Below are positions 421 through 60,838 of a DNA stretch of 64,000 bases, one piece after another. Origin of the DNA: a virus (lineage: Duplodnaviria > Caudoviricetes); the IMG/VR virus record IMGVR_UViG_3300028591_000011, positions 32,001 through 96,000 of that record. The stretch is one strand, 5' to 3'. A program made the translations under genes and the position numbers. A model generated the notes under the pieces. That model worked only from the letters and a program-made list of their open reading frames with translations. It was not told the DNA's origin and searched no databases. Within the stretch, counting starts at the first letter, position 1, and every line of letters begins with the position of its first letter.

Positions 421-428
421 TTCATATT

Positions 429-1974: not shown

Positions 1975-2048
1975 TTTTAACGCGGAAACCCCAGCTAGTT
2001 AGGTCTAGACATAGAAATATAGGGGGAGTAGAAAAAATTAATTAATTT

Positions 2049-3128: not shown

Positions 3129-3147
3129 TTTTAATTGATATAAGCAT

Positions 3148-4227: not shown

Positions 4228-4228
4228 T

Positions 4229-5102: not shown

Positions 5103-5103
5103 T

Positions 5104-17600: not shown

Positions 17601-20600
17601 TAAAGCTGCTGAGCAAAAGGTAAAACAAGATTGGAAGTCTTCCATATTAGGAAAGCGCGAGTTTATGTCTAGCGCGTTTACTAGACAAGCTGCTATTAAT
17701 TCTGGTGCAAGTAACGTAGAAGCTTTTTTATCTAGCGCATACGACAATGAAAGCATGCGTGACGATCTTTTAAATAAAGCTTACGATCTTTCTTAGGATA
17801 GAGACGCAGTAAAGAGATCTTATGTGTTAAATCACATTGCTTTGTTTGTAGAAGCATCTCAAGCCGCTAGGGTAAAATATATACAAAATGTAACTCGTAA
17901 TCAAGAAGAGCTTCTTGATATGTTCAAACGTATTACTGGGTTGGATCTGGACGTACGCAGATTGAAAGGTATAAGATCTAGATTGGACGATCAATTGAAG
18001 CAGTTATAGCAAAGAGAGAAATAGAATCTTAATCCCGACAATACTCCAGGATATGCAGATACGTATGAAAAATATTTCGAAAAAGATCCTGTTTCTTTCG
18101 ATGACCAAGAAGAATACGACAGATTGTTTGGAGAATATTCTCTCATGCACGCCATAAAAGATGTGCAACAGGTTCTTGCGGCTGCGTATAAGTTTGGAGC
18201 GGTAAACCCAGAATCTCTTGAGAAAGCTTTTTATAATGTAAGTGAAAACAATCCAATATCTGCTATAAGTAAAGAATATAGCAAAAGAAAGGCAGAACAG
18301 TCTGTCGAAATGGACGAAGAAGTTACGCAACGTTTTGATCCATTAAAGCAACATGATTTGTACGAACTGAGTAAAAAAGCAGCTTGGGCGTACATAAAAG
18401 ACTAGTTGCATGAGACAGAAGAACGTAGAAAAATAGCAAATCGCAGATGGGAAGAAGAGACTCCAATGACTTCTTCTAAAAAAGACGTACAAGAAGCTTA
18501 GGAAGAATCTGAAAATGAGTCTAGCGAAAAACAGACACCTGAAGAATCTGTAGAAAGTGGCCAGCAGCAACAGGAAGAACAGAATGGCAATCAAGCATCT
18601 AATATACCAGGTGCACAAATGAGTGATTCTGAGAAGAACTTAAGATAGAAATATAATAATGAGAAATAGCTAAGTGAAAAGAAGGCAGAAGAGATTGCTT
18701 AGAAACTGATAGAATCTGAGAGAAAACGTGCTGAAAAAGAAAAAACAGGAGAAGAAGAACCTGAACCTACTGAACAGCCTGAAGTTGCTCCTTAGCCAGC
18801 TGCAGAAGAACAGCAACCGGAGCCTGAACCTGAGCCAGAACCGGAACCTGAACCCGCTGAAGAAGTTCCAGAAGCGGAGCAAGCCAATCGACAAGCTGTA
18901 GACGATACACCGCCTGCGCCACCTGCTGTTGATTCCCCTTCCGACGATGACAGAGATAAAGATGAAGATCAAGCACCTCATTTGGATCCTTCTGTAGATT
19001 TACCAGAAAATTCTTCTGACGTATTAGAGCCAGACGTATAGCAACCAGAACCTATACTTGAACCACCAGTTGATACATACGATCCGTCTAACGATCCGTT
19101 GGATGTATACGATTAGGATTCTCCAGAAATAGAACCTCCGTTTGAAGGATTTTCTGATGAAGTAGATCCTCTTTCTGTTGTTTATAAAGACGGATAGGCG
19201 TTTATTGTAGAAGAAGATGGAAAACAGTGGACACCGTTAGATTATTTATTTTCAGATGCTCTTCTAGACGAAGCTAAACTGCAATTAGAATCAGAAGGTG
19301 CTACTGTATCTTTAGATGAAGTTCCAAATGGCAACATGTCTTAGGAAGAAAAAGTTTCTGTTTTGGATCATGACGATGTGTCATCTATAGTTTCTAGTAC
19401 ATTCTTTTATAACCCATTTAAGGTATTAAATAAGAAGAATGGAAAGAAAGAAGAATAGACTGTCTAGATGGTTGTAGGTGAAGAATAGTTGAAATTTAGA
19501 AAACCTATAGCATCTGGTGTAAAACTTGCAAAGAAATTAATACAACCTGGATGGCTTGCTTCTACAAATAAATTCTATGTTGTTTCTGATCCTATAAAAC
19601 GCCACGATAAGAAATTACAATATACAGATGATAGGGACATGCTTACTGTCGCTATCGCTTTAGAAGACGACGAAAATACATATTTGGTGTTCTTACGTCC
19701 TCTATATAAAACAATCTCCATAAAGGATCAAAATTCGTATATAGATAATACAGAAAATGACGTTCTTGACTATGTTCTATCTTATGGTGCGAATTGGAGA
19801 GCCGTAGCTGAAACTTTGGGGTTGGATGAAACCGCGTTGCTTGGAGAAAACACAACTACTGAAGATAGAATATCTGCGTATAAAAGAGCTGTGGCAAAAC
19901 TTGTTACAGAAAACTTGACCGAAAGCTGGGAAAAAGCTAGAAAGACAAATAAAACGTTAGATAAGGCACAATATATAAGAAAGTATTGGGAGTCCGAAGA
20001 GGATCGTGTAAGACAATCTCTTGCGCACAAAAATAGAAAAATTTATTCTAGAAGTAGAGCAAAGTAGGAAGTTGAAAAGCTACGTAATTTCAGAAATCAA
20101 ATCATAGATAAATACGCTACCGTAAATAATGACGGAACAGTAAATGTACCAAAAGAGGTACGATACGACGTAATACCAGTTTCTGTTAGACAATCTAATG
20201 GTAAATTCGATAACTAGACTAATGATACTACCGGTTTACCCGAATATAGACCTGTTACCGGTAAAGACTCGTTAGAAGAGATACAGACTAAACTTGAAAA
20301 CGGAACTCTACAAATAGGTTTTGGTAGGGGTTTATTTGCTTCTAAAAACAACAGATATAAAATAAATGATGTTTTACACCCAAGTAAAACTACATTTGGA
20401 GGAAAGGGGTTATCTGGTAAGTTATATTGGATGGTTCGCTCATTGTTTGATCCTTCTGTAAAAGTTCCTGTAATGCTAGCAGAAGAAAAATTCAACTCTC
20501 AGGTTAGATTGGTGAACGGAAAATCGGAGGTCTCTTTTATAGGAACTGGTATAAAAAATCCTGTAATTTGCTTGGAATAGGATATAGAAGGTAATTGGGT

Positions 20601-23600
20601 AAATACCAATAAAAAAGGATATCTTCCGAGCGCAGCTGAGATATTATTCTTATTGCTTACGAGGTAGATAAATCTTGGAACTACTGATGATTCTATACAT
20701 CAAGAAATAATAGAACTGTTTATACACAGTGGGCAAAATACTCTTGCAAAAAATCAACCTAAGTTACAAGAAACACCTATTGCTTAGTTTTTGAGTAAAT
20801 AGTTGTGGTATGGTATATAGGAAGGTGAATCTGTACCAAAATTACACATTGCTATAACTAGAGGGGATAGTGTACAATATAAAAGTTATACACAGCAGCA
20901 GCTCCAAGATCCTCAGGTAAAAATGGAAGTCATTAATGCACTTGCTACGTAGTTCCATTGGAATACGGATATAGATTTTATGAGTAAAGCTATGTATATA
21001 AATACCGTAGACTCTAGTGCGCTTTCCACTTTGTTTTCGTATATGATTAGGCAGCATACTGGAAAACTCACAGCAGATTCTAAACTTTCTTTGTTTGGAT
21101 GTCCATAGTTCACGTTCAGATTGGGAGATTTTATGAACGTGGTTAACGGGTAGGCACAACCAAAAAAGGGAGTTTCGTACTTAGCGTGGATGCTTAAAAA
21201 TCAGAAAGTAAAAACTGACGTGTCTTCAAATGTATTTTTTGCACCTTATGTATTTGCGAACGGAGTTGCAGTAAAAGGCGCGCAAGACGCTGTAGATACT
21301 TCTACACATCCTGTAGATGGTAACGACGAAGTTAAAGAAATAACAAATCCGATTATATATAAAGATTTGAATGACGTTACTGTTCTTCCGGAAGGTGAAG
21401 AACTTCAAGAAGCTATGTAGGAGGCTTCACAAAGTATGATTTCTTAGCAAAACGGAGGCACATCTGCTATTTATGTGTTAAAAGGTGTAGATCCAGATAA
21501 GATTTAGTTGGACGGTCAAGAAGAGGTCGAAGATGCAGCAAAGCAAAAAATAAAAGAAGCTCTAGATATACATAACAAAAAACACGGCACGTCTTACGAC
21601 ATAAAAGACTTGTAGTTAAAGATGAACGTTAGAAAAATGATGCTTCCTCAATATTGGGCTACAGGTTAGGCATTTATTAGGCTTGAATTGTTTAATAATG
21701 GCAAGTTTAACGTTACTGTACGTAAAAATGAGGATGTTGACAACGCCGGAATGATTGTTACTGGTGCGTTTAGTAAGACTGGTGGTTTGGCTACAATAGA
21801 TGCTGAGCGAGAACGTGATTGGATCTGTGAGACACTTGGCATAGATAAATCCAATGTTGTTGTTACTAACGCAGTAATGAAAAGTATGTCTGGCGAAGAC
21901 GTTTTTGGTGTTACAAATGTTGTGACGAATGTTATTACTGGAACCTTAATGGGTGTGATAAAGTTATCTTCTAGGGGAAATAAAGGCATGGGTTATCATG
22001 AGGCGTGGCACTATGTTAATCTGTTGATACACGATACAAAAACACGCAGAAGGATATACGAAGCTTATGCAAAAGCTAACGGGCTGTATAAACCAGGTGT
22101 CAAGCTTAGAGATATAGAAGAACATATGGCAGATGCATTCGCTAAAGATGTAATGTTAAATCAAGATACTACGTTATTAGGTTCTACTAGACGTTTGTGG
22201 AGAAATATTCTCGATTTCATACTTGTTACTGGAAACAGAAAACTTTATCGTTCTGTATTTAATGCCGTATAGACTGGAAAATATAAGAAATATTCCAAGT
22301 TAGATGACAGTTCTGTTTAGGAGTTTAGGAAAGCTTACGATTCTGGCGTATTTGCTACAAGTTATGTTCCTGGATATCCAAAAGAAGTAACCGATAATCT
22401 TAAACATATAGATCACTATTACCAACTTCTCGACGGAATGGATGCTGTTGTAAGAAGGATATTTGCAAATATACCTTTCGCAACCCAAAAAGAATTGGAA
22501 ATGTGGGCCAGCGAAGAGGGTTTGGAGATAATAATTGGGTTTGTAGATGAAATGATCGAAGAGCAATCTGACGAGAAAAAAGCTGATAGATTGAGAGATA
22601 TTAAAAACAATAAAGACTATCTATTCGAAAACGTAATTGCCGAGTTTAATAAATATGGATATAGAGTAAAAAGAAGGAAACCTGATAAACAACCTGAAGA
22701 TGTATCAAAAGATCCTGCTGCAGAAGAAAACGAAGATCCTATAAAAAAAGAGGAAAAGCCGGAAAATACTTGGGACAAGTTTGCGTTAGAGTATAGTAGG
22801 TCTGAAAATGTTTCTAATCACGTGAAATTCTTTTTATCCAGAATGCCGCAATACAAAAAAGTATGGATGCCGAATGGAAAGAGCAAATATATAGTTGAAA
22901 TTGACGATTATAATACACCTCTTTTCTTTGATTTGGATAAAACAATAAGAAAACTACATAAAGATCTTTGGTGGATAACTTCGTTTGGTGAATTAGAAAC
23001 CAATCCGGATTCCGGATACATATATAAACGTACATCTTTAATGGGTGCTATAGAACGTAGAAAAAATTCATAGGATTTTTATTATTCTATGTATGAATAC
23101 TTAAGTAAATACGCGCTCAAAAATACATCTGGTTCAGCAATGCTTAGAAGCGAACTGTTTAATGCTATAAACAGTAGCAAACAAAATATAGATTTATTGA
23201 CTATCTCTAATCCAAAACAACGAAACTTTAGCGGTCTTGCTTCGGATGAAGTTTTAGCTACTGCTGCAGCAAATATAGCTGAAGAAGATAGTCCGGTTAT
23301 TATAGCAAATACAGATAAAGCTGTTGCTGATAGACACAGAATATGGTCATTCTAGATAGACGAATTCTTGACTGCTGCTAGAAATACATTGAAATTGTGG
23401 TCGAAAAATCTCGCTGCGTCCAGTTTTCTTTCTTTTAATGAAGAAAAACAAGACGTATCTGTTGATCCAGAATTTACAAAAATAGTAGCAGATAAGTATA
23501 ATAGTCTTCATCAATCTTTAAATTCAAAAGATGCAATAAACAACCTTCGTAGTTTGAGATCTTCTTTTATAGATCTCATGAATACTGTAGGAATTGATTG

Positions 23601-26600
23601 TGATTTGTCATCATTAGGTATATTTTTAAATATATTACGAAACGATAAATCAGAAAAAATTGCTGGTAAGCAAATGACCGATGCCGAATAGGTAGAACTT
23701 ATGAAATCTGCAATAGACTCTGGTGATGTTGGATCTATAGGTGATATTATACAAGGAATTGCTTAGATACGTAAGAATAAAAGCGGAAACAAAAAACGTA
23801 ATCAGATCGGTGGACGAGAATTGGATGAGATTTTTACAGGATACTCGGATGATTCACAAATTCATTTATTAGCTGTTGCATGGGATTCTGCGTATCCTTC
23901 TCCGCAAGATTTTAGTGTAAAAGATGCAAACGGAAATAGATTGTATCCAGTGAATCTAAATAGCCATTTTACAGATAGAATAAATTGGTTAAACACTCCA
24001 GAAACCGGTTATGCAGACCAATTGAAACAATCTGCGTATTCTTAGCATTCATTGTTAGCAACTGTATGTGCTGATCAAGTAGATGAAAATGATCCGTCTA
24101 CTAAAATAAAAGCTAGAGCTTTTGTTGGTATAAGGGATGATGATACATAGGAAGGTGGAGATTATTTCGGTATAACTCCTCAAGAAGATTACATAGCTAA
24201 AATGATGATAACAGAACGAAACTGTCTGTTGTCACCGACAATGGCAGATAAAAAGTCTTGGGATTCGATACAAAGTCCATTTTTAAAACTATCACATTCT
24301 AGGATGTGGACTAGTGGCGAAGTTGGAGTATTAGACGATACTATAATCGAAGAGTTTTCTAAAATTAATCCATACAATCCAAAAGATAAGAGGTATGGAG
24401 GTATTGAAAGTAGATGGTGGTCTGCAGCTTTTAAGTGGTATGACAATTTGGAGGAAGACGATCCTATTAAAATAAGAATAAAAAAGTCTCCAATTTTAGC
24501 ATTAAAACAAAAGTCTGTAAATAATGTTGGTTATACTGTAGATGTGAATACAGGTACTGTAATGCCTAAGTTTGACTTCAGTACACTTAATATATTTGCA
24601 GGGTATGTTCTTGATGAAATAAATGCTCTTATAGGATACTATAGTGCGGAACACATTAAAGAAATGATGTCCGATAATAGCATGCGTTTGGATAATTTTT
24701 CAGGAACTGTCGATTCTAAAACAGGATTGCTTAATTGTGACGGAAACGGAGGATTCTTTAGATATTTTTACGACATATTGGATGGTATACCGGAAACATA
24801 TCATACACTTCAGATAAACGGAAATGACGATTTAAATCTCAATCATCATATACAAGCGTTATTTGAGTTATAGAAAAAAATCAGGTCCGGTGAAGTCGAT
24901 AACGTTTTAGCAGGAAAATCTAGATATAATAAGGTTACTGAATCATCAATATCTAAAGATGGTTAGGATTATGACGGATTTGAACTTATTAGACAATTTC
25001 TAGATGATTTGAAGAATTCTTTGTTTGGCGAAAATGAACAGGCTAACGATTATCTTTTGAATTAGATAAATAAAAAGCTTGTTAATATGGCGTACGAAGA
25101 ACTTGAAGAATTGTCTACCGAAAGTTCTCCGTTAAAAATGGCCAAATATGATGAAGATTCTGGATTGTATATACCTACTGGCGTACCTGAATAGCTATTG
25201 CGTCCTTACATAGAGGACTATATAAAATCAGGAATGATAGACAGTATGGATACTGGAGATCTGTATAAAAATGCACATAGAGACAAGTAGAAATATGCAT
25301 TAGGAAATGCGTTCTTTTCTCTTATTGCAAATCATGTAGCCAATACTGCTATTTCTATAATCGAGGTAGAAAAAGTTATTACCGGAGATCCTGCTTATTT
25401 TAAAAGAAAGCTTAATCCTGACGACAAGAAATCCGAGGTGCAAATGTCTATTCAGCTCGATAAAAATACAAAAGCCGAAAACGTAACTCTTTCTGTAAAT
25501 AACATTTATGATACATTCAGTGATAAAATAAAGCGTTTGGGAGGAACAATGTCTCCTGGTAGTGAAATACGACCAGACTATTCAGAATGGGAGATAGCAT
25601 AGGATCCCACTTTAAAAAACACTAAGTATACAAATCTTGTTGTAGAAGACCTTATTGTACCATCTGCTATATTAAAGACTATTTCTAATACATTTGAAAC
25701 TCAACTTATCGTAGATGTAATACGAACTTCAAACAACAATTATATAGATAAAATACGAAAACATATAGTTAGTATCGCTAACGATAAATCTATAAAACTT
25801 TCTGATGAAGATGTTATAAATGCGATATATAGAAACAAGAGGGTTCGTAAATTTGCATATGATTCTTTAAAAGATTACGAAAAGTCTTATATAAAAAATA
25901 CACTTAACGATCAAGTTGGTCCTTATACAGGTATTACAGTATCTGATGCACAGGTGTTTATCAGGCCTGCATTATATCGTAAAATACGTATAGGACTTGG
26001 TTTGTGGTAGTGGGAAAAGGATGCTGACGGTTATAGTGATGAGATAGCGTACAATTTAATATAGAATGGCAATGGCACAGAATGGATGTCCGATCCTAAG
26101 GCTAGAGAAATTGTTAGTAAGTTTGAATTATACGCGTTAAAGATGTCGTATTATCAAAACGATATTGTAAAAGTCAGCGACGATTTCTCTTATATGAAAC
26201 CTATTTATGATAAAATGGCCATATTCCCCATGTTTAAATATATGTAGTCAACTGATGTAGGAGAAGCTATATATAATAGAATGAACAAAAAGGATAACGA
26301 ATTGGATATGATTTCATTTAAGAGTGCTGTGAAAGTAGGTGCTCCCGCACAAGCTGCACAATTAATGGAAACTACTAAATCGAAGGCTATAAAAAAACTT
26401 AAAGAGGCTCATTAGAATGAAGAATCCTATTCTCCAACAGATCAAGAGATTGCTGATGCTATGGAATCCGAAACCATATTAAGTAAACTTAGCAAACAGT
26501 TCTAGAATAACAGTAATAAATATATTGATCAAGAAACTGGCGATATAAACGATCGTACAGGTGATGATTTACTTACTGTGGAAATTCAAGATCTTAAAAA

Positions 26601-29600
26601 TTTAAGAATGCAGCTTAATACAGAAGCACATGAAGCAGACGAACGTGCAATAGGTACATAGATGTTTAAGATTGCTTTCTCAAATATAATAGACGATACA
26701 CAATATGGGCTTGGAAAATCAAATCATAAGATAAGACTTGGTTCTGAAATAAAAAAATCTATCATGCGTAATATAAGCGCTCTAACTTAGTGTGGAGTGC
26801 TTCGTGAGGATTCTGATTTCTACGAAAATGGCAAATTAAGTTATAAAAAAGTAAAGAATTTCTTATTGCGAATCGTAGATAACAATAACTTGGGAGATAT
26901 CGCAAAAGCTATAATTAATGACGGCGGTGTTGTTAGTTCTCTTGTCAAAAGAGAAGTTTTTGAAATGTCTACTTCGTCTCATGTAAATAAAGATATAGTA
27001 GAGATACATACTAACGGTGGTACTGCAATTCAGCAGTCTATGTTTGGTTTTGCTGGATATGGTTCTGCTAATGTCGGTATACAGTATAATGGAGGTAGAG
27101 AGTTAAAATGGAACGCAAAAGAAGGTTCTATGGAAGTCATACTTTCTATGAATCTTTTACGAAGTGTCCTTCCTTCTGAATTGAAAGATAAATCGTTTAC
27201 AGAATAGAGGCAGTGGCTGATAGATAACGATATTATACTTGGTAATAAATTAGATGGATCTCAATCTGATCCGAAACCTTTTGGTATTGGTTATCGTATT
27301 CCTACACAGGGTATGTCGTCAATGTTCTCATTCATTGTAGCAGATGTAATACCTGAGCAATCTGGAGACCTTATTATAGTACCTAGAGAATTTACTGCTT
27401 AGACAGGTTCTGACTTCGACGTTGACAAACTGTATTTATCTACATTTGCATACAGTGATGGAGAAAGGTTATCTGCTTCTGATGAAGAATTATCTACTGT
27501 TCTTGGTGAAGATCCAAGCGGAATTGATATATCGGAAATGTAGAAGAAAATAGCAAACAACTTACTGCAGGACTATATTGATTTGGTATCGGATGAAAAG
27601 AATTTCGCAAACGCAAGAGCTTCGATTGATGCTATAACTAATGTAGTAAAAGACAACTTTTTAAAGAGGATTCGTCCAAAGAAATAGGGATATATAACTG
27701 GCATGACTGAGTTAATGCCTTCGTTCCAGTCTAGAAAGAAAATGGAGTTCAAAGTCGGTAAAGATGGAATTTCTCCGTTCGCATTGAGTATTCCGCATCT
27801 TGCAATGACATAGTTTACGCATTTGACAATAAATTTTGGTTCCGCAGGAAAGGCTTATGATTTAAATCCTCTCGATAGGATATATGGAAACGATAAATAG
27901 CGTATATCTGACTGGCTTTCTGCTATGGTTAATGCACATGTTGACGTAGCAAAGGATTCATATGTATTTGATCTTAATTTAAATAACAATACGTATAATC
28001 ATGCTGTATTGTTATTGCGTGCAGGTAAAGGTTTGTCCACGTTCTCATTTTTAGCACAGCCGCTGTTGAAAGAATTTTCTGACGCAGTAAATAATGCCGG
28101 CGGTGTATATGGGCGAAACATGGACGGGCTTATTGTAGAAGATGATAGTGGTACGTATCGCAAGAATATCATACGTCAGAAATTAATGTAGAGGTATGTA
28201 AAAATATTGAAAGATATTGCTACCGAACATGATTTATACGGCAAATGGAAGGATCATATAGAATATCTTGAGTATTAGTCAAAAGATAAAGATTCAAAAA
28301 CGAAATCTAAAAAACAATCTAAAGAAAAAGGCGATACTGATTATAAACTTCCAGAAGGTTTTGAAAAGAAACTTGTATTTGATATCGAAGAAGGAATTCG
28401 TTCAATTAATAATTTTGTGTACGACTTAAACAAAGTAAACAGCAAAAATGCAGAAGATTTTGTAGAAAGTTTAATATTTAATTTACATTGTCTAATTGCA
28501 TATCAAGATTTGAACAAATACGCAAGAACATTAAACGAACTTGTTTAGAATTCGCAAATTGATACCAAAAAGTTTGGCAAAACGTTTTATGAAAAAATAA
28601 ACTTTGAGAATAGACTTTATACGTTTATAAATAATTCTCAGTTATTTACTGTAACTGATCAAAAACTTCTTGGAAAACTTACTAAAGATTTAAAGAAGTC
28701 TGACAATGACGAATATGATCCGAAAGATGTATCCAGAGAAGTGCTGATGTATTACTACAACAGTACGTTCTTAATGAGAAAGCTTAGAAATGCTAATAAA
28801 TATTGTAGAGAAATTTTAGCAGGGCAGGTGTTTATGGCTAATCCGTTGTTTGAAGATGTATTTAAGACTATGATGATGTCTATATCTGGGGATGCCGAAA
28901 TTTTAGGTAAACACGGCGAACGTCTTAAGTTATATTCTCCTATATATAATCAAAATTCTTTAAAGAGTATATCCCACGCTGCTGAAAATGTAGCAAGATT
29001 TAATTCTTTAATGTCGTTTGGTCCTGGAATATATAAGAGAAATAAAAAAGAAGATCCTGATTCAGATATGCTCGACTTTACTGAAAATGGTGATCGGGTA
29101 GCCGTATCAGAAAGATTTAAGAAGCTATTGTTTGGTAACGATAAAGAATAGTCAATTTTTGTTCGTGCAAGAAGCCTTATCCGTAAAATAAAAGAAACTT
29201 CAGATACTAAACAATATGTGGGTCTTGTATCAAACGGTAGAATATTAAACGACCTTCTTGTCTATATAAGCCCTCTTACTCCTACTAAGAATTATCCAAT
29301 AGGTAGAATGATCTTAAGATCGTCTTAGACTGATAATAGAAACAAAGACGAAGTAAGATTGTCTGCGGCGTTTGCTTAGCTTTTATAGCATCCGAATGAA
29401 GAAGTTAGAAAGTTTGCTGAAGATCTTGCGTTTTACGCATATTATTCTGCATATGACTAGAATACGAGTAACTCGTTCTTCCATTTAGTCCCTCCTGCAT
29501 ACAGAAAATAGTATGACGCTTCTATATCAAAAGCTCTAGGATATTTAAATTCTACTGAATATGAAAAAAATAAAATAGGTCTTAGGGCTATTGGAGGAAT

Positions 29601-31203
29601 TGCCCCAGGAGGTAGATTTACTAGAGCTCAGTTGGTAAACACGATAGCTGAAAATTATATTTAGACTATAGGAAGGAATTATAGTTACGATTCAAATATA
29701 GTTCCTGTTTGGAAGATGCCTAAACGAATTAGTACAAGAAAATTCCAAGCATATCTTACGCCTAGTGATCGTGAAAAAGGAATGCGAGAAGTTGTTCTAG
29801 GCAAGACGGCAATGGTAAAAGGATTGAAAACTCCAATCAGAACTTTTATAGCATTCACTGAAACTACTTCCGGCGGAGGATACTTTTTTAAACTTCCGTC
29901 TGGTATACTGTATAGAAAGATTGGTGAAGTCAGAAGAAAATATAGAGGTAAAGATGGAAAAGACCACAACCTCGCTCCGTATTTTGTATATGCTGTTGCA
30001 CAACGTGCTGGGTATAAGAATAAGAAGTTACAGTTGTTTGAATTATTTTCTGGATACGATAAACCTTCTATATTTGCTGAAAATAAATATATCAGCAGTA
30101 CTTCTGAAGATGCTGTAAGAGAAGAAGTTTTGAACGTTGTAAAAAATAATACTGGAAATGTTGAGTTAAGTGTTGTATGGAATTCTAGCGAAATTCCAGA
30201 TATGTATAGATCTACCAATGCTGATATGTTTATGTAGCCTGATCAATTTATGGCACAGAAGAACGTTGGACAACAGTGGCAATTTGGTAAAGCTGTTTCT
30301 GCTTCTACTGTATACGGTGCTGAGTATAAATCGTTCTTAGATGCTGATGTTATACTTAATATAACACCATCTGAAATGGAACATAACGATTCTACGTTAA
30401 ATAATATTCCAGAAAAGTTTAGACCTAAAGTTGTTAATGTTGCATTAAATGGAAAGGGCTTAGCCAATGCAATAAAAGCTATAAAGAAGATATCGGAAGG
30501 CAATCGTATTTCAATTACTATAACGTCTCCTATTAAGACTGATTATTAGTGGTATAAATCATATATAACAGACAATGATGTTGACGATTATATCAATGGC
30601 AGAAGAAGTGAGCTTGAGGAATTATTTAGAGATTCTGCTGATGCAGAAAGTCAAATAAAGACAATACTCGACAATACTCGCGACGATTCTCAACATAGAA
30701 ATACTATGACTAATAAAAAAGTAGCAAGTGATTTTAATGATATTTTTAATAGGATATTATTAAGTCAAATAGAAGTATCTAAAGTTTCATCTACTATGGA
30801 CAAAGATAGACACGTTTTTGCTGCTATTGTCGATAAAATTTATCTTGAACATGGAAATAGTCTAGATTTTTAGTCCGGAGAGTTATATATCCCGTCTTAG
30901 TATAATCTTAACAAATTCGCAAGAGACATTATGCAATTGACCACGGTACCATTAATACAAATTACTGAAACACAAAAATCTGTTTAGGGTTCAGAATAGG
31001 TAGAAAAGATTATAGAAAAAGTCCAAAATGAAGATAAACCTGAAGAAAAAACAAAACCTGTTTCTAAAATAGTATAGGATGTAGAAACTTCAGATAGTAA
31101 AAAACATGAAGATTGTGGAGAAGGCACTACCGTAATGAAACCAACTGGTAAGAAGATGAATAATAGAGGTAGAGCCGGAAGAACCACTGAAATAATTGAT
31201 TAA
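14629..31203 (+). CDS. Giant virion-associated RNA polymerase polyprotein with zincin-like protease motif (TAG=Gln), ~5524 aa
   Basis: About 19 ORF-track fragments share frame 1, and the breaks I checked are TAG. Catalytic GSDFDVDKL (DFDVD at 27412-27426), GYRIPTQG, KRLGGTMSPG, SDAQVF, SAVKVG; HEAWH at 21997-22011. Not every codon was checked for TAA/TGA. Confidence 0.85.
18757..18857 (+). repeat. Pro-Glu low-complexity linker repeat inside the RNAP polyprotein
   Basis: EPEPTEQPEVAP(Q)PAAEEQQPEPEPEPEPEPEP with varied synonymous codons, so selection is at protein level. Confidence 0.8.
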
Positions 31204-50039: not shown

Positions 50040-50051
50040 ATGTGCCTACTA

Positions 50052-50654
50052 TTAGACAATAACTGTAACAGAATTGCCCTCCTTCACGTCGATAGGCTGC
50101 TTGAACTTCTCAACCTGAGCAAGGTACTCGTCTACCTTCTTCTTGTTAGAGGCGATAGCAGACTGTATGGAATCCTTAATTGCATTCCAATACTTAATCT
50201 GCTCGTTTACGCGATCCAGTTCACACTGATTAATCGCGTTAGCTTTCGTACAAATCTTCACACCGTTAGCGAAGACACGGCTCTGTCCCTGAAGGGCATC
50301 CTTCATGGCCTCATCGGTGGCCTGACCAAATGTCACATCACCAGCAACCACAGTTGCTTGAGCGGAGTCATCGGTATCGGGATTGAACACTACGACACGG
50401 TTACCCTCCATGTCAGTCTTAAACTGCTGGGTAATTACGCTATGATCCTTAATGTGGATCACACGAGGACTACGATTGGCAAGGAACTCCGGACTTGTGG
50501 GGTTTGCCAAAAGATTCTGCTTCTTCTTTTCGTACTGCTGATCGATGTCCTTAGACTCGATAGTATAGAACTTTGCTCCAGTTGGGAGCATTCGGCTAAT
50601 GTTCATTACCTGACCACGTACAGGGTCAAGTATGTTTTCAATTTCTTTATTCAT
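50052..50654 (-). CDS. Hypothetical protein with C-terminal coiled coil
   Basis: 200-aa ORF with biased codon usage; stop TAA-TAG-TAG. Confidence 0.75.
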   Translation of the reverse strand: MNKEIENILDPVRGQVMNISRMLPTGAKFYTIESKDIDQQYEKKKQNLLANPTSPEFLANRSPRVIHIKDHSVITQQFKTDMEGNRVVVFNPDTDDSAQATVVAGDVTFGQATDEAMKDALQGQSRVFANGVKICTKANAINQCELDRVNEQIKYWNAIKDSIQSAIASNKKKVDEYLAQVEKFKQPIDVKEGNSVTVIV

Positions 50655-50699
50655 TTCTAAATCCTTTTTGAAATCGTCTTTGATAAACCAACGATTTAG

Positions 50700-52820
50700 A
50701 TTAAACTTTGCCCTCTCGGCTCGGGCGTTGCCGTAAAATATATAAATGTGGATGCTTACACAGTTTTTATTTCTTCAGTTGCTGTTCTAATGGGAAGCAC
50801 GTTTTTCTCGATGATTAGTTATACTTCTATATTCCTCGGCCCAATACGTTTAGGTATGGCAAATGTGAAGCTCAACTCGTATAACGAGGATTCAACGGTA
50901 GAATCATCCATGCTCATCATCATCAAGATTTGTTAAAACTTTAAATGCTGAATGTGTATATCCAAATACTAAACCTGTTTTAAGCATAATGTTTATTTTT
51001 CGTGAAACATACAACATTCATCCGTCAAAGGCTCTTATATAGGCTCAGGAAGGCTCTGAAGAGAGTTCCAGTGCTGAGATGTTTGTTGTCGAATTTAGTT
51101 TTTACCCAGGGTTTCGCCTGGCCATAAGAGTCTGTGAATATTTCTTCTTTAGTGTATTTTTGAATCTTATTCACATAAATACTTCTGATTATTTTACAAG
51201 CCTAACAGCAGTATGAACGTGCTTGTTTCCTGTTTCAATAGCTCCATAACTATTGTTTTTACGTGAGGAGTACGTTTCATTATCGGACGGCCCTATGACG
51301 TATCTGTGCGTCGGCCCTACGGCTTTGTTTTTTATCTTGGCAAGTGCTTGCCTCATTATTTATAGTGCACGAATACTGGAGGGATTCCACCTCATACGCT
51401 ATAAGATTTATCACCCACTTTACCTTCTTTGTACACACTCCGAGACAGGGAGTAGTAGTTCCTGCATACGATTATATCACTGCGTTTAATCAGTCGGTAA
51501 AGCTGCCTTGCATCGTTTGCGTATATTGCTTCATAGTTCGGACGCACCACTTAGATTTGCTGTCTAAGCTTCTGGCCTACTATCTTGCTACTTAATTCTC
51601 AGGAACGGTTGGCACTCGATTTCCAGACGTGAGGCGCTCACAAGCGTTACAAACGGAGCCTTTCTCTTCCCCAGCTGGCGACATCAATTTTTGTTTGACA
51701 TGTTAATTATTATTTGGTTTCCTCTGTATTTATTTTCATATGACTATCTTGTTTAATAGAGTTATAATGACGCAATAGTATCTAGGCTTACTACTCCTCA
51801 GGGACTATTGTTTTGAATGTAACAATCTAAACATCATATTATCTTCATACTTGGACGCCAGCGACTTATTAATATACTGGAATATATATTCTTCGGATCG
51901 ACCAGCGTTAATCTTGTTATTTGTTTGGCTGTCAAGGAGCCATCTACTACATAGCATTTCCTCTTACATGTAGTTCAATTCTATAGCGAAACCTTGCTAA
52001 AGGGCTCTACTAAAGTCTTATCAGTCTTTGAACGCGGACTCTTAACGCGACGCACATATCCATGCGTTAGGTTTTACCCCTTATCTTCCTGCATCGAAGA
52101 TCCAGTCATTTTACTTTTATATACCGCATAAACGACTAAAGCCTGGCGGTCATCTTCAACATTCTTTCCTCAGTACCCCATCCCTGGACACTCTAAGGTG
52201 TTGCAGCCTTGCATATCACCAAACTACCATTTAATACTCTCATAAGTTCTTTTGCAAGACACTTTTTCGAATCGAACGGCAAGGGCTTCTTCAAGGACCG
52301 TAGTTACGGTACAGCGTAGATATTTTAAACCTTCTACTAGGTATATGAACTCAGATAGTTTTCATCCCTCAATGCTGGTTTTGGAGACCAGTGACACTAG
52401 ACTAAGCAAATGAAACATCAGTATAGCTTTTGGCCTACTATACTGTTCAACTCGTGTTACGTTATACAGAACCTCTATGTTTCTCTCGAAAGGCTGCATG
52501 TCCGATACGTATTCGTTTACAACTCGTGTGCGTCTTCCTTACTAATAACCCACACTTCATGAGTCTGGCAAAGCATAAAGAACTCTGCTGGTATTTATTA
52601 GTGTTAGGGTTGAATAAACGCTGACCCTACTTACTGCAAGCTTTTCTACCATGTAGTATGTCATGGAACTTACAGCATTTCATTCTACCTTTTGGTTAGT
52701 CTATGGAGATAGACATACATATTCTCGAATCAAGTTATACTATTTCGCACCTGGGCTAATGAGACCCATCTGAAATGTGCTGACCGGATTGCCTACGGCT
52801 GGAAAGCCGGTAAAGCAGTA
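50700..52820 (-). ncRNA. Candidate large structured non-coding RNA locus (~2.1 kb; boundaries uncertain)
   Basis: No sense-strand ORF of 60 aa or more in an otherwise gene-dense arm. Many short hairpins, an internally repeated TAGTAGGCCARAAGCT motif and a tRNA-Trp-like anticodon arm. Confidence 0.5.
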
Positions 52821-52823
52821 TCT

Positions 52824-53309
52824 TTACCGACCTTCCTCCGCGGAGTGATTATCGTTTTCTGATGAATATACAACCTGACCGTCGACAGTCAAGCTGATGC
52901 TGCTTCGCTTAGAGTTCTGCAGCTCACCATGAGATTGCTCCTCACGATCTCCAGAAATTTTGTTTTTAACAGCAATACCGTCCAGCTTCCCTGGAATGGG
53001 CATAGGACAGTATACAGTATCTGTCGTACTTCTACGCTTCTGAACGTATACATACTTTGGTTTTACCTTGAACACAGTATCCCGTAGTACTACTGTGTCC
53101 GTTTTCATACTCTCTGTACTCGTGCCCTGACTACTCTGAGTCACGAGCGGCATCCCTACGTTCTGCAATCCCTGTAAGGGCTGCAAATGCATGGGCGGGG
53201 ATGCGATTGCTACCTGATGGCCTGGGAACACTGGTGCGTCCATGAGAGCCATAAAAGCTCCACATACCATAAATATAAGGCAGCAAACAACTGTTGTAAA
53301 ACGTTTCAT
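52824..53309 (-). CDS. Signal-peptide / membrane-anchored hypothetical protein
   Basis: MKRFTTVVCCLIFMVCGAFMAL...; start chosen at ATG 53309 (track start is 53354). Confidence 0.65.
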   Translation of the reverse strand: MKRFTTVVCCLIFMVCGAFMALMDAPVFPGHQVAIASPPMHLQPLQGLQNVGMPLVTQSSQGTSTESMKTDTVVLRDTVFKVKPKYVYVQKRRSTTDTVYCPMPIPGKLDGIAVKNKISGDREEQSHGELQNSKRSSISLTVDGQVVYSSENDNHSAEEGR

Positions 53310-53402
53310 ACTTTGATAGTATTTATTCGCCGTATAGCCATTTGTCGAAGGCATTATGGATGCGGTTTACCAACCTGCGAATAACGTTAGTTGGCTCCGC
53401 TT

Positions 53403-54770
53403 CTATTTTTTTCCTTCTTCAGGCTTTACTTCAACGAGTTCGACCAAGTTACCTTCTCCGTACATGGCCAGCTGCGATGCGGGATCGCGGAACAGGTTGA
53501 TGATAATTCCAGCATACTGCTTGAAATTGTTTTCAACACACTCGGCCTCGTACTTCGACATATCCTGATTAGGATACATCGTCTTGAGAATAGAGTCAAC
53601 AATGTTTACAACAATGTTGTGCTCCTCGTGATTCTCATCGTTGTATATCTCAACAATGTTGTCCACTATCTCGGCTGACGGATTTGTCACAATGGCAATG
53701 ATGTCATTTGCGTACTCAATATCAGCCTTCTTGTTCTTGATATTCTCGTTGATTGTGGCGATTGCTTCAGCGTTCTTCTTCTCGTCCAACTTCTTGAGCT
53801 GACGCTCCTCCTGAGCAATTGTGGCGTTAGCCTCATTGATCAGAGCCTCTGCTGACCAGATCACATACGTGCGACAGATAGCAGCGATAAGTCCAGGCGT
53901 GGCTTCCATATCGCCAGTCTTCCGGTTGCGACCTGAGCGATACAAGGTGCAATAAGCATCAATCGGCGTACTGGACTTTGCCACAAGATCGCGTAAGTAC
54001 TTAGCGATTCCGCTATCCTTATAAGGACAATTCCCAATAAGGCTTTTGATGTCGCTGAGAAGGTCGATGTCAGTCATTTCCTCAATCTTCTTGAGTTCCT
54101 CCTCGTTATCCTTCACCTGAAGTTTCAGGTAAGCACGATAGAAGTTAATTGCCTTCTTTGCGCGTGCAACCGGACGATCACCCTTTACAAAGATGTTGAT
54201 CAAAGCGGCCTTAAGACCAGCTTCGTCTTTCACATCCGTAGGTGTCTCTGCGGGCTTAGATCTGACTACCTTCTGCTCTTCTGCAATCTTCTGCTGAGCC
54301 TTCTTGTCAATGTCCTTCTTAGACACTGTAACGACCACCTTATTCTCGGGCGACTCGTTTTCGAGACCTGCAGCCTTCATCTGCTCCTTAGTAGGCGCAG
54401 GAAGAAGCGCTAACGCTGGCAACTCGATGTCATACATCTTAGCTGCAAGCTGAAGAGCTGCATATGCCTTGGGGCTCTTCTCTACGATCTGGTGGATTAC
54501 TGTATCGCTATTCACAGCCTCTTCTGCGAAGATGGCGATTCCCAGAATATCCGTCATTACGTTCATACCACTCAGGAACTGCGGAGAACTTTTCAGATCT
54601 TCAGGAATATTTTTAGAATAACGATCGTGATACGTTGCAAACAGCGTGACTTTTGCATCAGGTGATAAGCCTGCCATCTTTGCTGTTGCAGGATTTATTA
54701 CTGTCGATGTAGCAGGCTGTGCTTCTTCGACTATTGGTGCCTCTACTACAGGCTTTTCTGTTTTCTTCAT
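53403..54770 (-). CDS. Hypothetical protein, 455 aa, helical/coiled-coil
   Basis: Long ORF with CATTATCAAA-ATG leader and TAG stop. Confidence 0.85.
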   Translation of the reverse strand: MKKTEKPVVEAPIVEEAQPATSTVINPATAKMAGLSPDAKVTLFATYHDRYSKNIPEDLKSSPQFLSGMNVMTDILGIAIFAEEAVNSDTVIHQIVEKSPKAYAALQLAAKMYDIELPALALLPAPTKEQMKAAGLENESPENKVVVTVSKKDIDKKAQQKIAEEQKVVRSKPAETPTDVKDEAGLKAALINIFVKGDRPVARAKKAINFYRAYLKLQVKDNEEELKKIEEMTDIDLLSDIKSLIGNCPYKDSGIAKYLRDLVAKSSTPIDAYCTLYRSGRNRKTGDMEATPGLIAAICRTYVIWSAEALINEANATIAQEERQLKKLDEKKNAEAIATINENIKNKKADIEYANDIIAIVTNPSAEIVDNIVEIYNDENHEEHNIVVNIVDSILKTMYPNQDMSKYEAECVENNFKQYAGIIINLFRDPASQLAMYGEGNLVELVEVKPEEGKK

Positions 54771-56837: not shown

Positions 56838-56853
56838 ATTTTTGAAAATAAAG

Positions 56854-56927
56854 TGGACCCTGAGGGGCTTGAACCCACGACCTCTAGATTATGAGTCTAT
56901 TGCTCTAACCAACTGAGCTAAGGGTCC
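56854..56927 (-). tRNA. tRNA with CAT anticodon, most likely tRNA-Ile2 (lysidine type, reads ATA)
   Basis: GGACCCT-TA-GCTC-AGTTGGTTA-GAGC-A-ATAGA-CTCATAA-TCTAG-AGGTC-GTGGG-TTCAAGC-CCCTC-AGGGTCC-A. Overall pattern resembles Ile2 rather than Met; CCA is not encoded. Confidence 0.85.
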
Positions 56928-56930
56928 GAT

Positions 56931-57071
56931 TGCTCCCACTTAGGTAGGGAGCACACCCGATCACGCCGCCTCCTTGAGGCCAGTGTAATCAACAACGTTT
57001 ATGTTGCCAGTTAATTTATATCAAAGCGCTTAATGTATTTACTTCCGCTGCTGTCTAATACATTCAGGCCC
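56931..57071 (-). ncRNA. ssrA: Permuted tmRNA, coding piece (5' acceptor strand + tag reading frame)
   Basis: Begins GGGCCTG...GACAGC. Resume context TAACT-GGC. Tag frame 57008..56961 encodes GNINVVDYTGLKEAA*, with the stop in a hairpin (GATTAC/GTGATC, GCCTC/GAGGC). Confidence 0.85.
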
Positions 57072-57233
57072 TTATAGTTCATGAAAGAATGCATTAGCAT
57101 TACTTTCGTAATCATCACCTCCATAATAACCTTCTACAGTACCTAATGGAGATATTGTACCTTTTTTAAGAAGATCTTCAAAAGCTACGGCATCTTTATC
57201 GTTTACTTTATATAACACTATATATCCTTTCAT
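57072..57233 (-). CDS. 53-aa ORF inside the tmRNA intervening segment
   Basis: MKGYIVLYKVNDKDAVAFEDLLKKGTISPLGTVEGYYGGDDYESNANAFFHEL*. A-rich leader; its TAA directly abuts G1 of the coding piece. Confidence 0.6.
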   Translation of the reverse strand: MKGYIVLYKVNDKDAVAFEDLLKKGTISPLGTVEGYYGGDDYESNANAFFHEL

Positions 57234-57247
57234 GATTTTGAATTTTG

Positions 57248-57300
57248 TGGACCTGGAGGGTATGTCTCCCTCGTCCAAACAGCTTACCTCATACACGCTA
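57248..57300 (-). ncRNA. ssrA: Permuted tmRNA, acceptor piece (5' boundary uncertain)
   Basis: ...AGCGTGTAT...GCTGTTT-GGAC-GAGGG-AGACATA-CCCTC-CAGGTCC-A. CAGGTCC pairs with GGGCCTG, giving G3:U70 and discriminator A. Confidence 0.85.
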
Positions 57301-57309
57301 AGATTGGAA

Positions 57310-59696: not shown

Positions 59697-59875
59697 TTTG
59701 ATAATGATTTAAATGTTAATAAATTAATTTATTTTTATGGGCTAGACCCAAAAGACATTCGTCTTAAAGTGTACTATCTTCGCAGACAATACACTCGTAT
59801 GCTGTTTTCACGGCCGAACGGAGGAGCAAGTAATTTCCTTTGAAAACCGATCTTCAGGGACAGCAATAACCCTTG

Positions 59876-60450
59876 TGATTCTTGCAGGACTCGAACCTGC
59901 GACCCACAGCTTCCTGCTACTCTATGTTACCATAGCCAACCCAAGAAACAAATACTACATACTCACCATAATTATGTATGCTGGATTATTTTCAGTAAGT
60001 TTCTTTTAACTGTTGTTGTAGTCTGGAATACATCTTTACCATATTGAAATTCTTGCAAGTAACAGCAACTTTTATATTCACTGGGTGTTTTTAATGACGT
60101 TCCCCACCTCGTCACATACATTACCGTAATTTCAACTTAGGTATCTCCTATATACTATCTACACATTTATGAGGCTAACTTGTTTTCCCAATCTTGACAA
60201 GCATTTGAAGGCATAGTCTCTCAATTTAGCACGGTATTATCCTTACACATTATTGGTTAGTGTGCAAATTATAATGTAAGTGCTTAAAGCTAAATGATAA
60301 CGCTTCCCTTAAATTTGCTTGGGGCACTTATCTTACTTACATATTTCAAAGGACTTCCACCGTTTTAGGGAGATTCTACCATGGGATTTCTCGCCATAGC
60401 ATCCAATTTTCATAGAAGGCTGTTGCTCTATCCAACTGAGCTAAAGAACC
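59876..60450 (-). tRNA. tRNA-Arg(TCT) interrupted by a group I intron (exons 60450..60414 and 59912..59876)
   Basis: Spliced sequence GGTTCTT-TA-GCTC-AGTTGGATA-GAGC-A-ACAGC-CTTCT^AA-GCTGT-GGGTC-GCAGG-TTCGAGT-CCTGC-AAGAATC-A forms a complete cloverleaf. Confidence 0.9.
59913..60413 (-). mobile_element. Group I intron (501 nt, IC3-like, no evident homing endonuclease ORF)
   Basis: 5' exon ends in U and the intron ends in G. P1 with GAAA loop and U:G pair; P3 ATCTCC/GGAGAT; P4 ACGGTG/TACCGT; P5 TCCTT/AAGGA; R GTAGATAGTA; S AAGATGTATTCC. Confidence 0.85.
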
Positions 60451-60523
60451 AATAACTCCCTACTCGACAAACCCTGTCTATTTCGCGCTGAGGGTGTCCC
60501 ACCAAACCTCCTCGGGAGTATAT

Positions 60524-60838
60524 TTATCTAATTCGTAGTGGAAAGCACGACAAATCAGATTTACGCATACATTTTGTACAAGCTTCACTTTTACAATAAC
60601 CACATGGTCTGAAGTGATTCATTGTTGCACAAAATACACATCTGTGAAATTGTATACATTTGTATCTATATAAAGATCGCATTCTGTATACTTTTCCATC
60701 AATCGTGATCAGTCTTCCAGCTGTCCACGTTCTTTGTTTTTCTTTTGCTTTTCTTCTTCTTACTTTTTTTCTTAAATTTCTTTTTCTACAACCAGTAAGT
60801 TTTTTGAAGCAGCAATTTTCTTTATTATAGTTTATCAT
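60524..60838 (-). CDS. Basic Cys-rich hypothetical protein (possible Zn-binder)
   Basis: CxxC clusters (CVFC, CGYC, CTKC). Confidence 0.55.
   Translation of the reverse strand: MINYNKENCCFKKLTGCRKRNLRKKVRRRKAKEKQRTWTAGRLITIDGKVYRMRSLYRYKCIQFHRCVFCATMNHFRPCGYCKSEACTKCMRKSDLSCFPLRIR

Follow-up and report, generated by a model that had tools for sequence, protein, structure and literature searches.

The DNA window analysed here, a stretch of 64,000 nucleotides, comes from a ruminant-gut crAss-like phage of the Oafivirinae type that has a complete genome of 105,735 bp and reads TAG as glutamine in its late arm. The gene order running leftward includes a sigma factor, genes encoding proteins of 129, 455 and 176 aa, a gap, and genes encoding proteins of 200 and 201 aa, onward to PolB. 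The gap (50655-52823, minus strand) follows the 176-aa gene, whose stop codon is at 52824, and precedes the 200-aa gene, whose ATG is at 50654. It has a G+C content of 40%, shares the orientation of the early/middle genes around it and is part of the replication-gene arm, with PolB some 4 kb farther downstream. The two flanking genes are separate, and each has a start and a stop codon of its own. Neither a promoter nor a U-tract terminator was evident at the gap ends or inside the gap in a scan restricted to sigma-70-type signals.

The neighbouring proteins were without a match in PHROGs, Pfam and PADLOC except for the sigma factor, which is of the ECF type. The 176-aa protein is membrane-anchored and gave a sub-threshold match to Phage_ProQ_C_like (E 0.05) that was not counted as evidence. 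The 455-aa protein, encoded two genes upstream of the gap, lacked a YxDD motif and any Pfam or PADLOC match, and the ESM Atlas gave no lead. Its AlphaFold model was all-helical (pLDDT 82) and resembled only generic helical repeats and hairpins (Foldseek best E 0.11; VIA-align Z at most 8.3, which is the helical-protein background). A search for related loci with the 200-aa neighbour protein found no relatives, while DNA anchors succeeded. The features of the gap are listed in Table 1.

Table 1. Features of the gap locus, listed in the direction of the minus strand
Feature	Coordinates	Strand	Basis or remarks
Whole locus: ORF-free, conserved, base-paired, putative ncRNA	50655..52823	-	no ORF, collinear blocks, no codon periodicity, compensatory helices
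Strong boundary hairpin of 15 bp spanning the 176-aa gene's stop codon	52800..52838	-	inverted repeat; sequence varies, pairing kept in relatives
First universally conserved hairpin, loop GGUCUCAUUAGCC	52752..52768	-	alignment
Conserved 5' blocks GAUUCGAGAAUAUGU and CAAAAGGUAGAAUGAAAUG around covarying hairpin 52713-52702	52676..52731	-	second block used as an independent search anchor
Hairpin described in the initial annotation	52418..52446	-	position conserved, stem covaries
Three hairpins: 52391-52375, 52337-52316, 52315-52297	52297..52391	-	each with 5-6 pairs changed on both sides
Module represented by covariance model R1	51989..52197	-	82 matches, E <=2e-14
Pseudoknot 1	52105..52150	-	ACCGC 52150-52146/GCGGU 52127-52123 crossing GUCGU 52136-52132/AUGAC 52109-52105
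Hairpin AUCUUC/GAAGAU, GAUGCAG-type loop	52083..52101	-	6/6 pairs changed on both sides
Pseudoknot 2	52023..52049	-	CGCG 52049-52046/CGCG 52036-52033 crossing AGUC 52040-52037/GACU 52026-52023
8-bp hairpin, then A/U-rich linker	51772..51811	-	7 pairs double-changed
Start of the 3' half	51549..51705	-	anchors AACAUGU and GAUGUCGC; helix 51678-51673/51628-51623; GAGUGCCAACCG 51617-51606 conserved; hairpin 51569-51549
Most conserved core	51261..51419	-	AGUGGGUGA pairs with UCGUGCACU, enclosing the GAGG/CCUC hairpin
3' domain hairpins: 50969-50956, 50905-50889, 50885-50818	50818..50969	-	each with 4-5 pairs double-changed
Terminal conserved hairpin (AAAUCGUUGG...ACGAUUU), then CAAAAAGGA and ATG 50654	50655..50697	-	also present in Bearivirinae and Boorivirinae

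Coding capacity of the gap

An initial annotation of this DNA reported that no sense-strand ORF of 60 aa or more occurred over about 2.1 kb, and this was borne out as the longest ORF in the gap was 55 aa on the minus strand (83 aa on the plus strand). Small ORFs and other genetic codes were also ruled out, and reading the gap with table 4, TAG=Q or TAA=Q opened nothing long. Stop codons of all three kinds numbered 26-62 per frame across the six frames, where about 50 were expected from composition. Only 20% of indels in the gap were multiples of three versus 97% in the neighbouring 455-aa coding sequence, and mismatch autocorrelation peaked at lags of 3, 6 and 9 in that coding sequence while the gap displayed a monotonic decay. 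Indels of 1 and 2 nt broke the frames within the most conserved blocks. These sequence comparisons establish that the gap has been non-coding over evolutionary time.

There is very little to recommend the explanation that the region codes for protein, either as small ORFs, as antisense ORFs of the kind annotated in cr7_1 or in an unusual code. Plus-strand stop-free runs of 80-150 codons were found in all homologues and the GenBank record of cr7_1 has an antisense CDS of 160 aa in the gap, but composition alone predicts about as many stop-free runs as were seen. By our estimate the share of sequence within runs of at least 40 codons would be about 0.7 on the T-rich plus strand and about 0.5 on the minus strand, and the observed values were similar. 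The lack of 3-nt periodicity, the scarcity of indels in multiples of three, the frames broken in conserved blocks and the frequent stops everywhere also oppose a protein-coding function. Current annotations place spurious small ORFs into this region (Dulem virus 42, cr7_1 gp52).

Conservation, base pairing and strand

The gap was syntenic, with a size of 2.0-2.3 kb, in more than 120 related viral contigs. The pattern TATTCGYGYACTATAAA identified 106 loci, 103 of them with blast matches that were mostly in the same block order, and a second anchor located 1.4 kb from the first recovered the same contigs and 23 further ones. An alignment set of 39 non-redundant full-length homologues (2.04-2.34 kb) was assembled. 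Islands of sequence in these relatives were 70-86% identical to the window sequence versus 21-48% for the flanking coding sequences, and the 455-aa neighbour protein was merely 24-33% identical in the same phages.

Eight matches were found in GenBank, all from Oafivirinae wherever the taxonomy line was read, and Oafivirinae keeping the locus at one fixed place came from human, pig, macaque, lemur and ruminant samples. The genomes cr6_1, cr118_1 and cr50_1 had an identical order of sigma factor, three genes, a 1.9-2.5-kb gap and two genes of about 190 aa, so that the same gap and gene order occurred in three other Suoliviridae subfamilies, the Bearivirinae, Uncouvirinae and Boorivirinae. The window shared collinear islands and conserved hairpins with cr6_1 and cr50_1 (Bearivirinae and Boorivirinae), and no sequence match was found in the cr118_1 gap. 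The R1 model gave no significant match outside the Oafivirinae, the best (E 0.58) being at the collinear place in cr6_1. By synteny, size and collinear blocks the gap meets the description of a putative giant gap RNA of the Suoliviridae sensu lato.

Consensus folding of the 39 sequences with RNAalifold predicted 258 pairs, with about 19 helices that were at least 85% canonical and had at least 3 pairs changed on both sides. In cross-validation, pairs predicted from 18 sequences were 73.5% canonical in the 21 held-out sequences versus 34-42% when slid, and held-out pairs changed on both sides were 66% canonical (n=1490) versus 32-41% in the slid controls. The module at 52197-51989 was 88% paired in a first test, with 190 double-change cells versus 23-41 when slid, and none of 500 shuffles reached the observed value. 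With 81 distinct sequences the R1 module was 93.7% paired and featured 411 double changes versus 46-106 in the controls (0/500 shuffles). The covariation that the initial annotation had left to be checked was thus strong and survived cross-validation as well as the slid and shuffled controls, and the alignments demonstrate that about 20 strongly supported helices, more weaker ones and two pseudoknots have been kept by compensatory substitutions. The helices of pseudoknot 1 were 96-98% paired, with changes from CG to AU, GC to CG and CG to UA or AU and with 22 G-U versus 14 G-C, while those of pseudoknot 2 were 100% and 95% paired, with CCCG/CGGG in 3 sequences and AU, UA, CG or GU at one pair. 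Folding energy gave no signal, which counts against a structured RNA: that of the window's own sequence was no lower than that of shuffles, with a gap mean z of about -0.6 (13 windows), and flanking coding windows as far as 50350-50051 had a mean MFE z-score of about -2.1.

Several sequence elements singled out in the initial annotation could be placed on this alignment. The hairpin CAGTATAG/CTATACTG (52445-52419) was present and is kept in relatives with compensatory stem changes, and the conserved motif UWACACGAG (52459-52451) adjoins it. An RNAalifold pairing of 52442-52437 with 51742-51737 was dropped in favour of this local covarying hairpin. The hairpin GAGG-TGGAATC-CCTC (51393-51379) was likewise present and covaries (GAG/CTC, GGGG/CCCC); the core that encloses it continues with UAUUCGYGCACUAUAAA, AAGCCGUAG...CGAUAA and a hairpin ACGU/ACGU that is ACGC/GCGU in relatives. 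Other elements exist but are less widely kept. CATG-ACATACTA-CATG (52664-52649) falls within a variable, lineage-specific insert, only the second of the two copies of ACACGAGTTG (52529-52520 and 52457-52448) is conserved, and a real 16/17-nt repeat (51567-51583 and 52425-52441, one mismatch) has its second copy in just one relative besides the window. The boundary hairpin had arms GGAAGGTCGGTAAAG/CTTTACCGGCTTTCC versus GGACCGGCAGTGA/TCACTGCTGGTCC and others in the alignment, and the terminal hairpin of R1 near 52004-51991 carries a GGUAAGCG-type loop.

In pairs predicted on both strands the ratio of G-U to A-C was 135:63 in the training sequences and 265:141 in the held-out sequences, and a single pair of the R1 module was G-U in 52 sequences and G-C in 24. 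The RNA was assigned to the minus strand because G-U exceeds A-C about 2:1. A DNA-level element without any RNA, such as a replication origin, a packaging site or hairpins of single-stranded DNA, is highly unlikely on these grounds. The placement in the replication-gene arm, with PolB some 4 kb downstream, would suit such an element and hairpins are also possible in single-stranded DNA, but the frequent strand-specific G-U pairs would be A-C mismatches on the other strand. These pairs make unlikely the origin of replication that the initial annotation had listed among possible refutations. In addition, iterons or tandem repeats were not found in the gap, the cumulative GC skew had no turning point there (the turn is at about 37 kb, at the switch in gene orientation), and the two pseudoknots are kept by covariation.

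Expression and nature of the putative RNA

Sheep and cattle gut RNA libraries from four studies contain the stretch, only as contigs that also cover flanking genes, and DNA carry-over or simple read-through is therefore not excluded. Summed depth was 4-10x higher over 51339-52672, although this may sum related strains. Neither transcript ends nor strand could be read from the RNA-library contigs, and uncovered parts in two runs prove nothing.

We favour, with a probability of roughly 0.55, the reading that a very large structured ncRNA of about 2.1 kb is encoded by the gap on the minus strand, either as a single gene or as two closely linked ones, while a discrete transcript has not been shown. 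The earlier suggestion, which was for one or two large, structured ncRNAs and perhaps a new class of them, is supported by the non-coding character, the covariation and the lack of an Rfam match; transcription and the number of RNAs remain to be shown. It is inferred that the RNA would be transcribed with the leftward operon from the sigma factor to PolB and that the hairpins at 52838-52800 and 50697-50672 may bound or stabilise it. A stable RNA might then accumulate and act in trans during infection as a folded scaffold, a ribonucleoprotein core or a decoy. Such a trans-acting RNA is likened to the early long non-coding RNAs of phi14:2 and to GOLLD and ROOL, and its biochemical activity is unknown.

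A further proposal, which we hold only tentatively and consider possible, is that the whole 2.1 kb forms one RNA with a defined three-dimensional architecture and its own activity, which might be catalytic, consist in self-assembly or involve capturing a host machine (e.g., the ribosome or a defence complex), rather than a mere scaffold. If true, a single 2.1-kb RNA would be the largest structured non-ribosomal phage RNA known, in a whole family of abundant gut phages.

Several smaller structured RNAs cut from an operon transcript, such as two RNAs (about 1.0 kb on the 5' side and about 1.05 kb on the 3' side) or a larger number, are a rather unlikely but serious alternative. The AT-rich break near 51.7 kb that had been suggested as a boundary between two modules is real (51.78-51.70 kb) and corresponds to an A/U-rich linker (51780-51720), poorly conserved and often gapped, beside the anchor AACATGT (51704-51698). 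No long-range helix joining the two halves across the linker had convincing covariation, the RNAalifold proposals being invariant or inconsistent, and the supported helices were nearly all local. A brute-force helix search over all column pairs was too noisy for long-range pairs or strand. Phage phi14:2 also has two separate long non-coding regions. Against division, the modules co-occur in every homologue in the same order with near-fixed spacing and a total length within about 15%, and no internal promoter or terminator was seen in the sigma-70-type scan. Pairing over a distance of about 1 kb is conceivable between the anchors GAGAAUAUGU (52725-52716) and AACAUGU (51704-51698), although both are invariant and covariation is thus uninformative.

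It is improbable that the gap acts in cis as a giant operon leader or spacer controlling read-through, processing, stability or translation of the 200-aa, 201-aa and replication genes. Its location inside a co-directional operon without an evident promoter or terminator of its own would fit such a role, as would the finding that conservation reaches most widely in the final block. There the hairpin is followed by CAAAAAGGA, 6-9 nt before ATG 50654, and the block is shared even with Bearivirinae and Boorivirinae. This terminal block may belong not to the RNA but to the region where translation of the downstream gene starts. However, conservation extends over the whole length and not just near the downstream start, and we know of no cis-regulatory leader that needs 2 kb, dozens of conserved helices and pseudoknots.

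Comparison with known RNA systems

Large folded RNAs outside the ribosome are rare, and RNase P, group II introns, OLE, GOLLD and ROOL each revealed new RNA biology or architecture. The locus is two to three times the length of GOLLD, is more conserved than the adjoining proteins and must pay its way because it occupies about 2% of a tightly packed genome. The same gap is present in three other subfamilies of the delta crAss-like phages, which are among the commonest human-gut phages, and cryo-EM, chemical probing and genetics in crAss-like phages gain a concrete target in the locus.

A cmscan search at Rfam 15 gathering thresholds, a check called for by the initial annotation, gave no match in the gap to GOLLD, ROOL, OLE, HEARO, raiA or others, and a permissive scan of 50300-53200 to E 10 returned only a chance SNORD48 match (E 8.4). 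A group I or II intron was rejected as Intron_gpI, Intron_gpII and group-II-D1D4 had no match at E 10 and the flanks are separate genes. This exclusion by Rfam is limited because Rfam also missed an intron-like insert in a tRNA at 60447-59873. Elsewhere, a tRNA at 56854-56927 was the only gathering-threshold match in the whole window.

UG27 loci of Bacteroidota phages comprise a protein of 380-450 aa and two accessory proteins, together with an intergenic region that is long and structured (bioRxiv 10.64898/2026.09.22.753630). Their arrays resemble the locus as long, structured, pseudoknot-containing intergenic regions in phages of the same host phylum, and the 455-aa protein encoded two genes upstream of the gap is what suggests an array of reverse-transcriptase RNA templates of this kind. 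The suggestion can be virtually set aside as the complete genome had no RVT_1 match while control genomes did, and the 455-aa protein has neither a YxDD motif nor a Pfam or PADLOC match and has an all-helical model. UG27 units measure about 135-167 nt. A repeat search of the gap showed only short two-copy direct matches and detected no repeated units of about 150 nt, and the blocks of the gap are orthologous position by position rather than variable array units. Retron or DRT template RNAs were rejected because of the missing RVT_1 and the lack of PADLOC and Pfam matches to the neighbours. The dCas12f-sigmaE and TIGR-Tas readings, which call for a Cas12f- or TnpB-like protein or a Nop-domain protein beside the RNA, were considered and dropped. 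The 455-aa neighbour of the sigma factor has an all-helical model and no Pfam match; RuvC-type and Nop-type folds were both absent from its fold-search lists, which does not exclude an unlisted family.

GOLLD is about 800 nt long and ROOL about 580 nt. Like the locus, GOLLD (RF01998) and ROOL (RF03087) are large, folded, phage-borne ncRNAs of unknown function with pseudoknots that were discovered through comparative genomics, and rumen and gut samples are a source of ROOL too (PMC12286853). The locus differs in being about 2.5-3.5x longer, in having no match to their covariance models even at E 10 and in lying inside an operon of a virulent-type crAss-like phage, and there are no data on cage formation.

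Apart from a remark on phi14:2, no described structured RNA of crAss-like phages was found in the literature. This Cellulophaga phage belongs to the Steigviridae, its gap has a G+C content of 30% versus 40% at the locus, and positions 1-12000 gave no motif, blast or R1 match, only one RNA module having been modelled. It is the sole case with expression data. RNA-seq showed that its early operon, upstream of PolB, contains long intergenic regions whose transcripts exceeded those of most genes and persisted late (bioRxiv 10.1101/2020.03.07.982082). The phi14:2 g004-g006 regions are, like the locus, ORF-free stretches of 1.7-2.1 kb in a member of the Crassvirales that lie in a co-directional early operon 4-5 kb upstream of PolB, and the gap qualifies as a region of this phi14:2 type by being long, ORF-free, co-directional and located in the early operon upstream of PolB.

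Genomic setting and conservation of the gap

The complete virus record is 105,735 bp long with direct terminal repeats, and the window covers its positions 32001-96000. The closest GenBank relatives were crAss-like phages of the subfamily Oafivirinae (Buhlduvirus cr273_1 and cr272_1, Cacepaovirus cr131_1 and cr130_1, Bohxovirus, Burzaovirus cr7_1, cr124_1 and Dulem virus 42), placed in Suoliviridae by the records and in Darmviridae by current NCBI taxonomy. Long genes in the plus-strand late arm (1-37000) appeared only when TAG was read as glutamine, including ORFs of 5524, 1896 and 1302 aa, and the standard code was used in the minus-strand arm (37000-64000). The window yielded no suppressor tRNA, the only ARAGORN hit being a tRNA-Met.

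The ORF-free region of the minus-strand arm (gap) had counterparts in cr273_1, cr131_1 and cr7_1, where the interval between the same two flanking genes was 2.0-2.2 kb and had no credible gene. Searching IMG/VR with a 17-nt pattern taken from the block of highest conservation retrieved 106 loci, 103 of which had blast matches to the gap, mostly to several blocks with order and spacing preserved, and a second pattern 1.4 kb away recovered the same contigs and 23 further. The 39 non-redundant copies (97% identity cut-off) were 2.04-2.34 kb long, and 29-50% of their aligned positions differed from the window. In islands along the window, identity over the whole set of 39 rose to 70-86%, compared with 21-48% at the neighbouring coding ends. 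Identity of the 455-aa protein encoded two genes upstream was no more than 24-33% in these phages. By sequence comparison, the gap is both conserved and syntenic.

The initial annotation had described the region as lacking sense-strand ORFs of 60 aa or more, and this held along its full length with minus-strand ORFs of at most 55 aa. The longest plus-strand ORF was 83 aa and recoding TGA, TAG or TAA as sense opened nothing long in the gap. Stop codons of all three kinds occurred in all six frames at 26-62 per frame (about 50 expected from composition). Plus-strand stop-free runs were about as frequent as the T-rich composition predicts, by our estimate from base frequencies, and were interrupted by 1- and 2-nt indels within conserved blocks. 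Mismatches between relatives in the flanking 455-aa gene showed autocorrelation at lags 3, 6 and 9, and its indels were multiples of three in 97% of cases, whereas in the gap the autocorrelation fell smoothly and the proportion of such indels was just 20% (n = 9984). On this comparative evidence the gap is non-coding. Public annotation places a 160-aa antisense CDS (gp52) in the homologous gap of cr7_1 (NC_055895.1, 3367-3849) and a dozen ORFs of 30-100 aa in that of Dulem virus 42 (3381-5389); these are probably spurious calls over RNA.

Features of the window
Feature	Position	Strand	Remark
5524-aa ORF	14629-31203	+	95 in-frame TAG
Gap	50655-52823	-	stop of 176-aa gene (52824) to ATG of 200-aa gene (50654)
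A/U-rich linker	51780-51720		poorly conserved
Module of model R1	51989-52197	-	two H-type pseudoknots
Hairpin	52446-52418
ACACGAG	52457		conserved among relatives
AAACGAYAATCAC-TCC	52842-52858	-	last codons of 176-aa gene
Coding flanks	52901-54700, 50051-50800	-	folding-energy z down to -4.3
tRNA-Met	56853-56927
tmRNA_permuted (RF04321)	56961-57302	-	sub-threshold
Split tRNA gene	59873-60447	-	insert of about 500 nt
5' half, GGTTCTTTAGCTCAGTTGGATAGAGCAACAGCCTTCTAT	60447-60409	-
3' half, GCTGTGGGTCGCAGGTTCGAGTCCTGCAAGAATCA	59911-59877	-
High-depth bin	60010-60676

Base pairing and covariation

RNAalifold predicted 258 pairs from an anchor-refined alignment of the 39 gap sequences. Approximately 19 helices, spread from 52713 to 50689, were at least 85% canonical with at least three pairs changed on both sides. 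To avoid circularity, a structure was predicted from 18 sequences of the window's clades and scored on the remaining 21, in which 73.5% of cells paired versus 34-42% with the partner slid by 1-3 columns. Where both bases were unlike the training pair (1490 held-out cells), 66% still paired versus 32-41% when slid. A hand-written structure of the R1 module was 88% paired and had 190 double-change cells, compared to 23-41 slid and 64 ± 6 shuffled, and none of 500 shuffles attained the observed value. The covariance model R1 built on this module found 82 copies from 100 sources; 81 distinct sequences showed 93.7% pairing with 411 double-change cells (46-106 in controls).

Every hairpin and repeat pointed out in the initial annotation was found in place. 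The hairpin in the table and the GAGG/CCUC hairpin were kept in relatives and covaried, whereas the 17-nt repeat, the first ACACGAGTTG copy and the CATG hairpin were restricted to the window's near relatives. No long-range helix in the gap had convincing covariation, which leaves the number of molecules, one or several, open; the A/U-rich linker is a natural border between possible separate RNAs. The window's own sequence gave no folding-energy signal (mean z about -0.6 in the gap versus about -2.1 in coding flanks). Two coding stretches were unusually negative, below the ncRNA itself.

Strand, ends and transcription

When only pairs predicted on both strands were counted, G-U exceeded A-C in the training (135:63) and held-out (265:141) sequences, and G-U/G-C alternation was seen at single pairs, indicating an RNA co-directional with the surrounding minus-strand genes. 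Neither a sigma-70-type promoter nor a U-tract terminator was found at the gap ends. The 3'-most conserved block (hairpin, CAAAAAGGA, then ATG) may serve the downstream gene. The AAACGAYAATCAC-TCC motif was kept across several clades while the remainder of the 176-aa gene end varied, and could be a signal linked to the RNA start. RNA-library contigs from four studies, of sheep and cattle gut origin, spanned gap and flanks alike, which makes transcription of the gap likely but does not demonstrate it.

Elsewhere in this arm, a tRNA gene was split by an insert in or beside the anticodon loop. Pairing is intact in its acceptor, anticodon and T stems, and UCU is a possible anticodon. The gene was undetected by ARAGORN and Rfam, and no group I intron model gave a match at E 1. 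The high-depth bin was 45-300 times deeper than its neighbours in all four RNA libraries. The tmRNA_permuted match scored 32.1 bits (gathering score 47, E 7e-4), and a tmRNA is annotated in the syntenic region of cr50_1.

Other subfamilies and known systems

Homologues of an ECF-type sigma factor encoded 2.4 kb upstream of the gap occurred elsewhere in Suoliviridae. The same order of sigma factor, three genes, gap and two genes of about 190 aa recurred in Bearivirinae cr6_1, Uncouvirinae cr118_1 and Boorivirinae cr50_1, with gaps of 2.08, 1.92 and 2.51 kb, respectively. Oafivirinae shared collinear hairpins (23-80 nt, 77-100% identity) with both cr6_1 and cr50_1. R1 was not significant in these three genomes; its best match (cr6_1, E 0.58) was collinear and retained the AGNN/NNCU helix.

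UG27-type template arrays (bioRxiv 10.64898/2026.09.22.753630) were excluded because the genome contains no reverse transcriptase. The predicted model of the 455-aa neighbour was all-helical and fold searches gave no recognisable fold; Cas12f and Nop readings of this protein were set aside.

The proposal of a large structured ncRNA, possibly of a new class, was supported by covariation, non-coding evolution and the lack of an Rfam 15 match for the gap. The gap is a real, conserved, structured ncRNA locus of a new family on the minus strand, of which function, ends and transcript number are unknown. The nearest precedent with data is the crAss-like Cellulophaga phage phi14:2, in which transcription of long early-operon intergenic regions upstream of PolB exceeds that of most genes and persists late (bioRxiv 10.1101/2020.03.07.982082); the place is analogous, but no homology was detectable. 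The locus is similar in kind to GOLLD and ROOL and two to three times longer.
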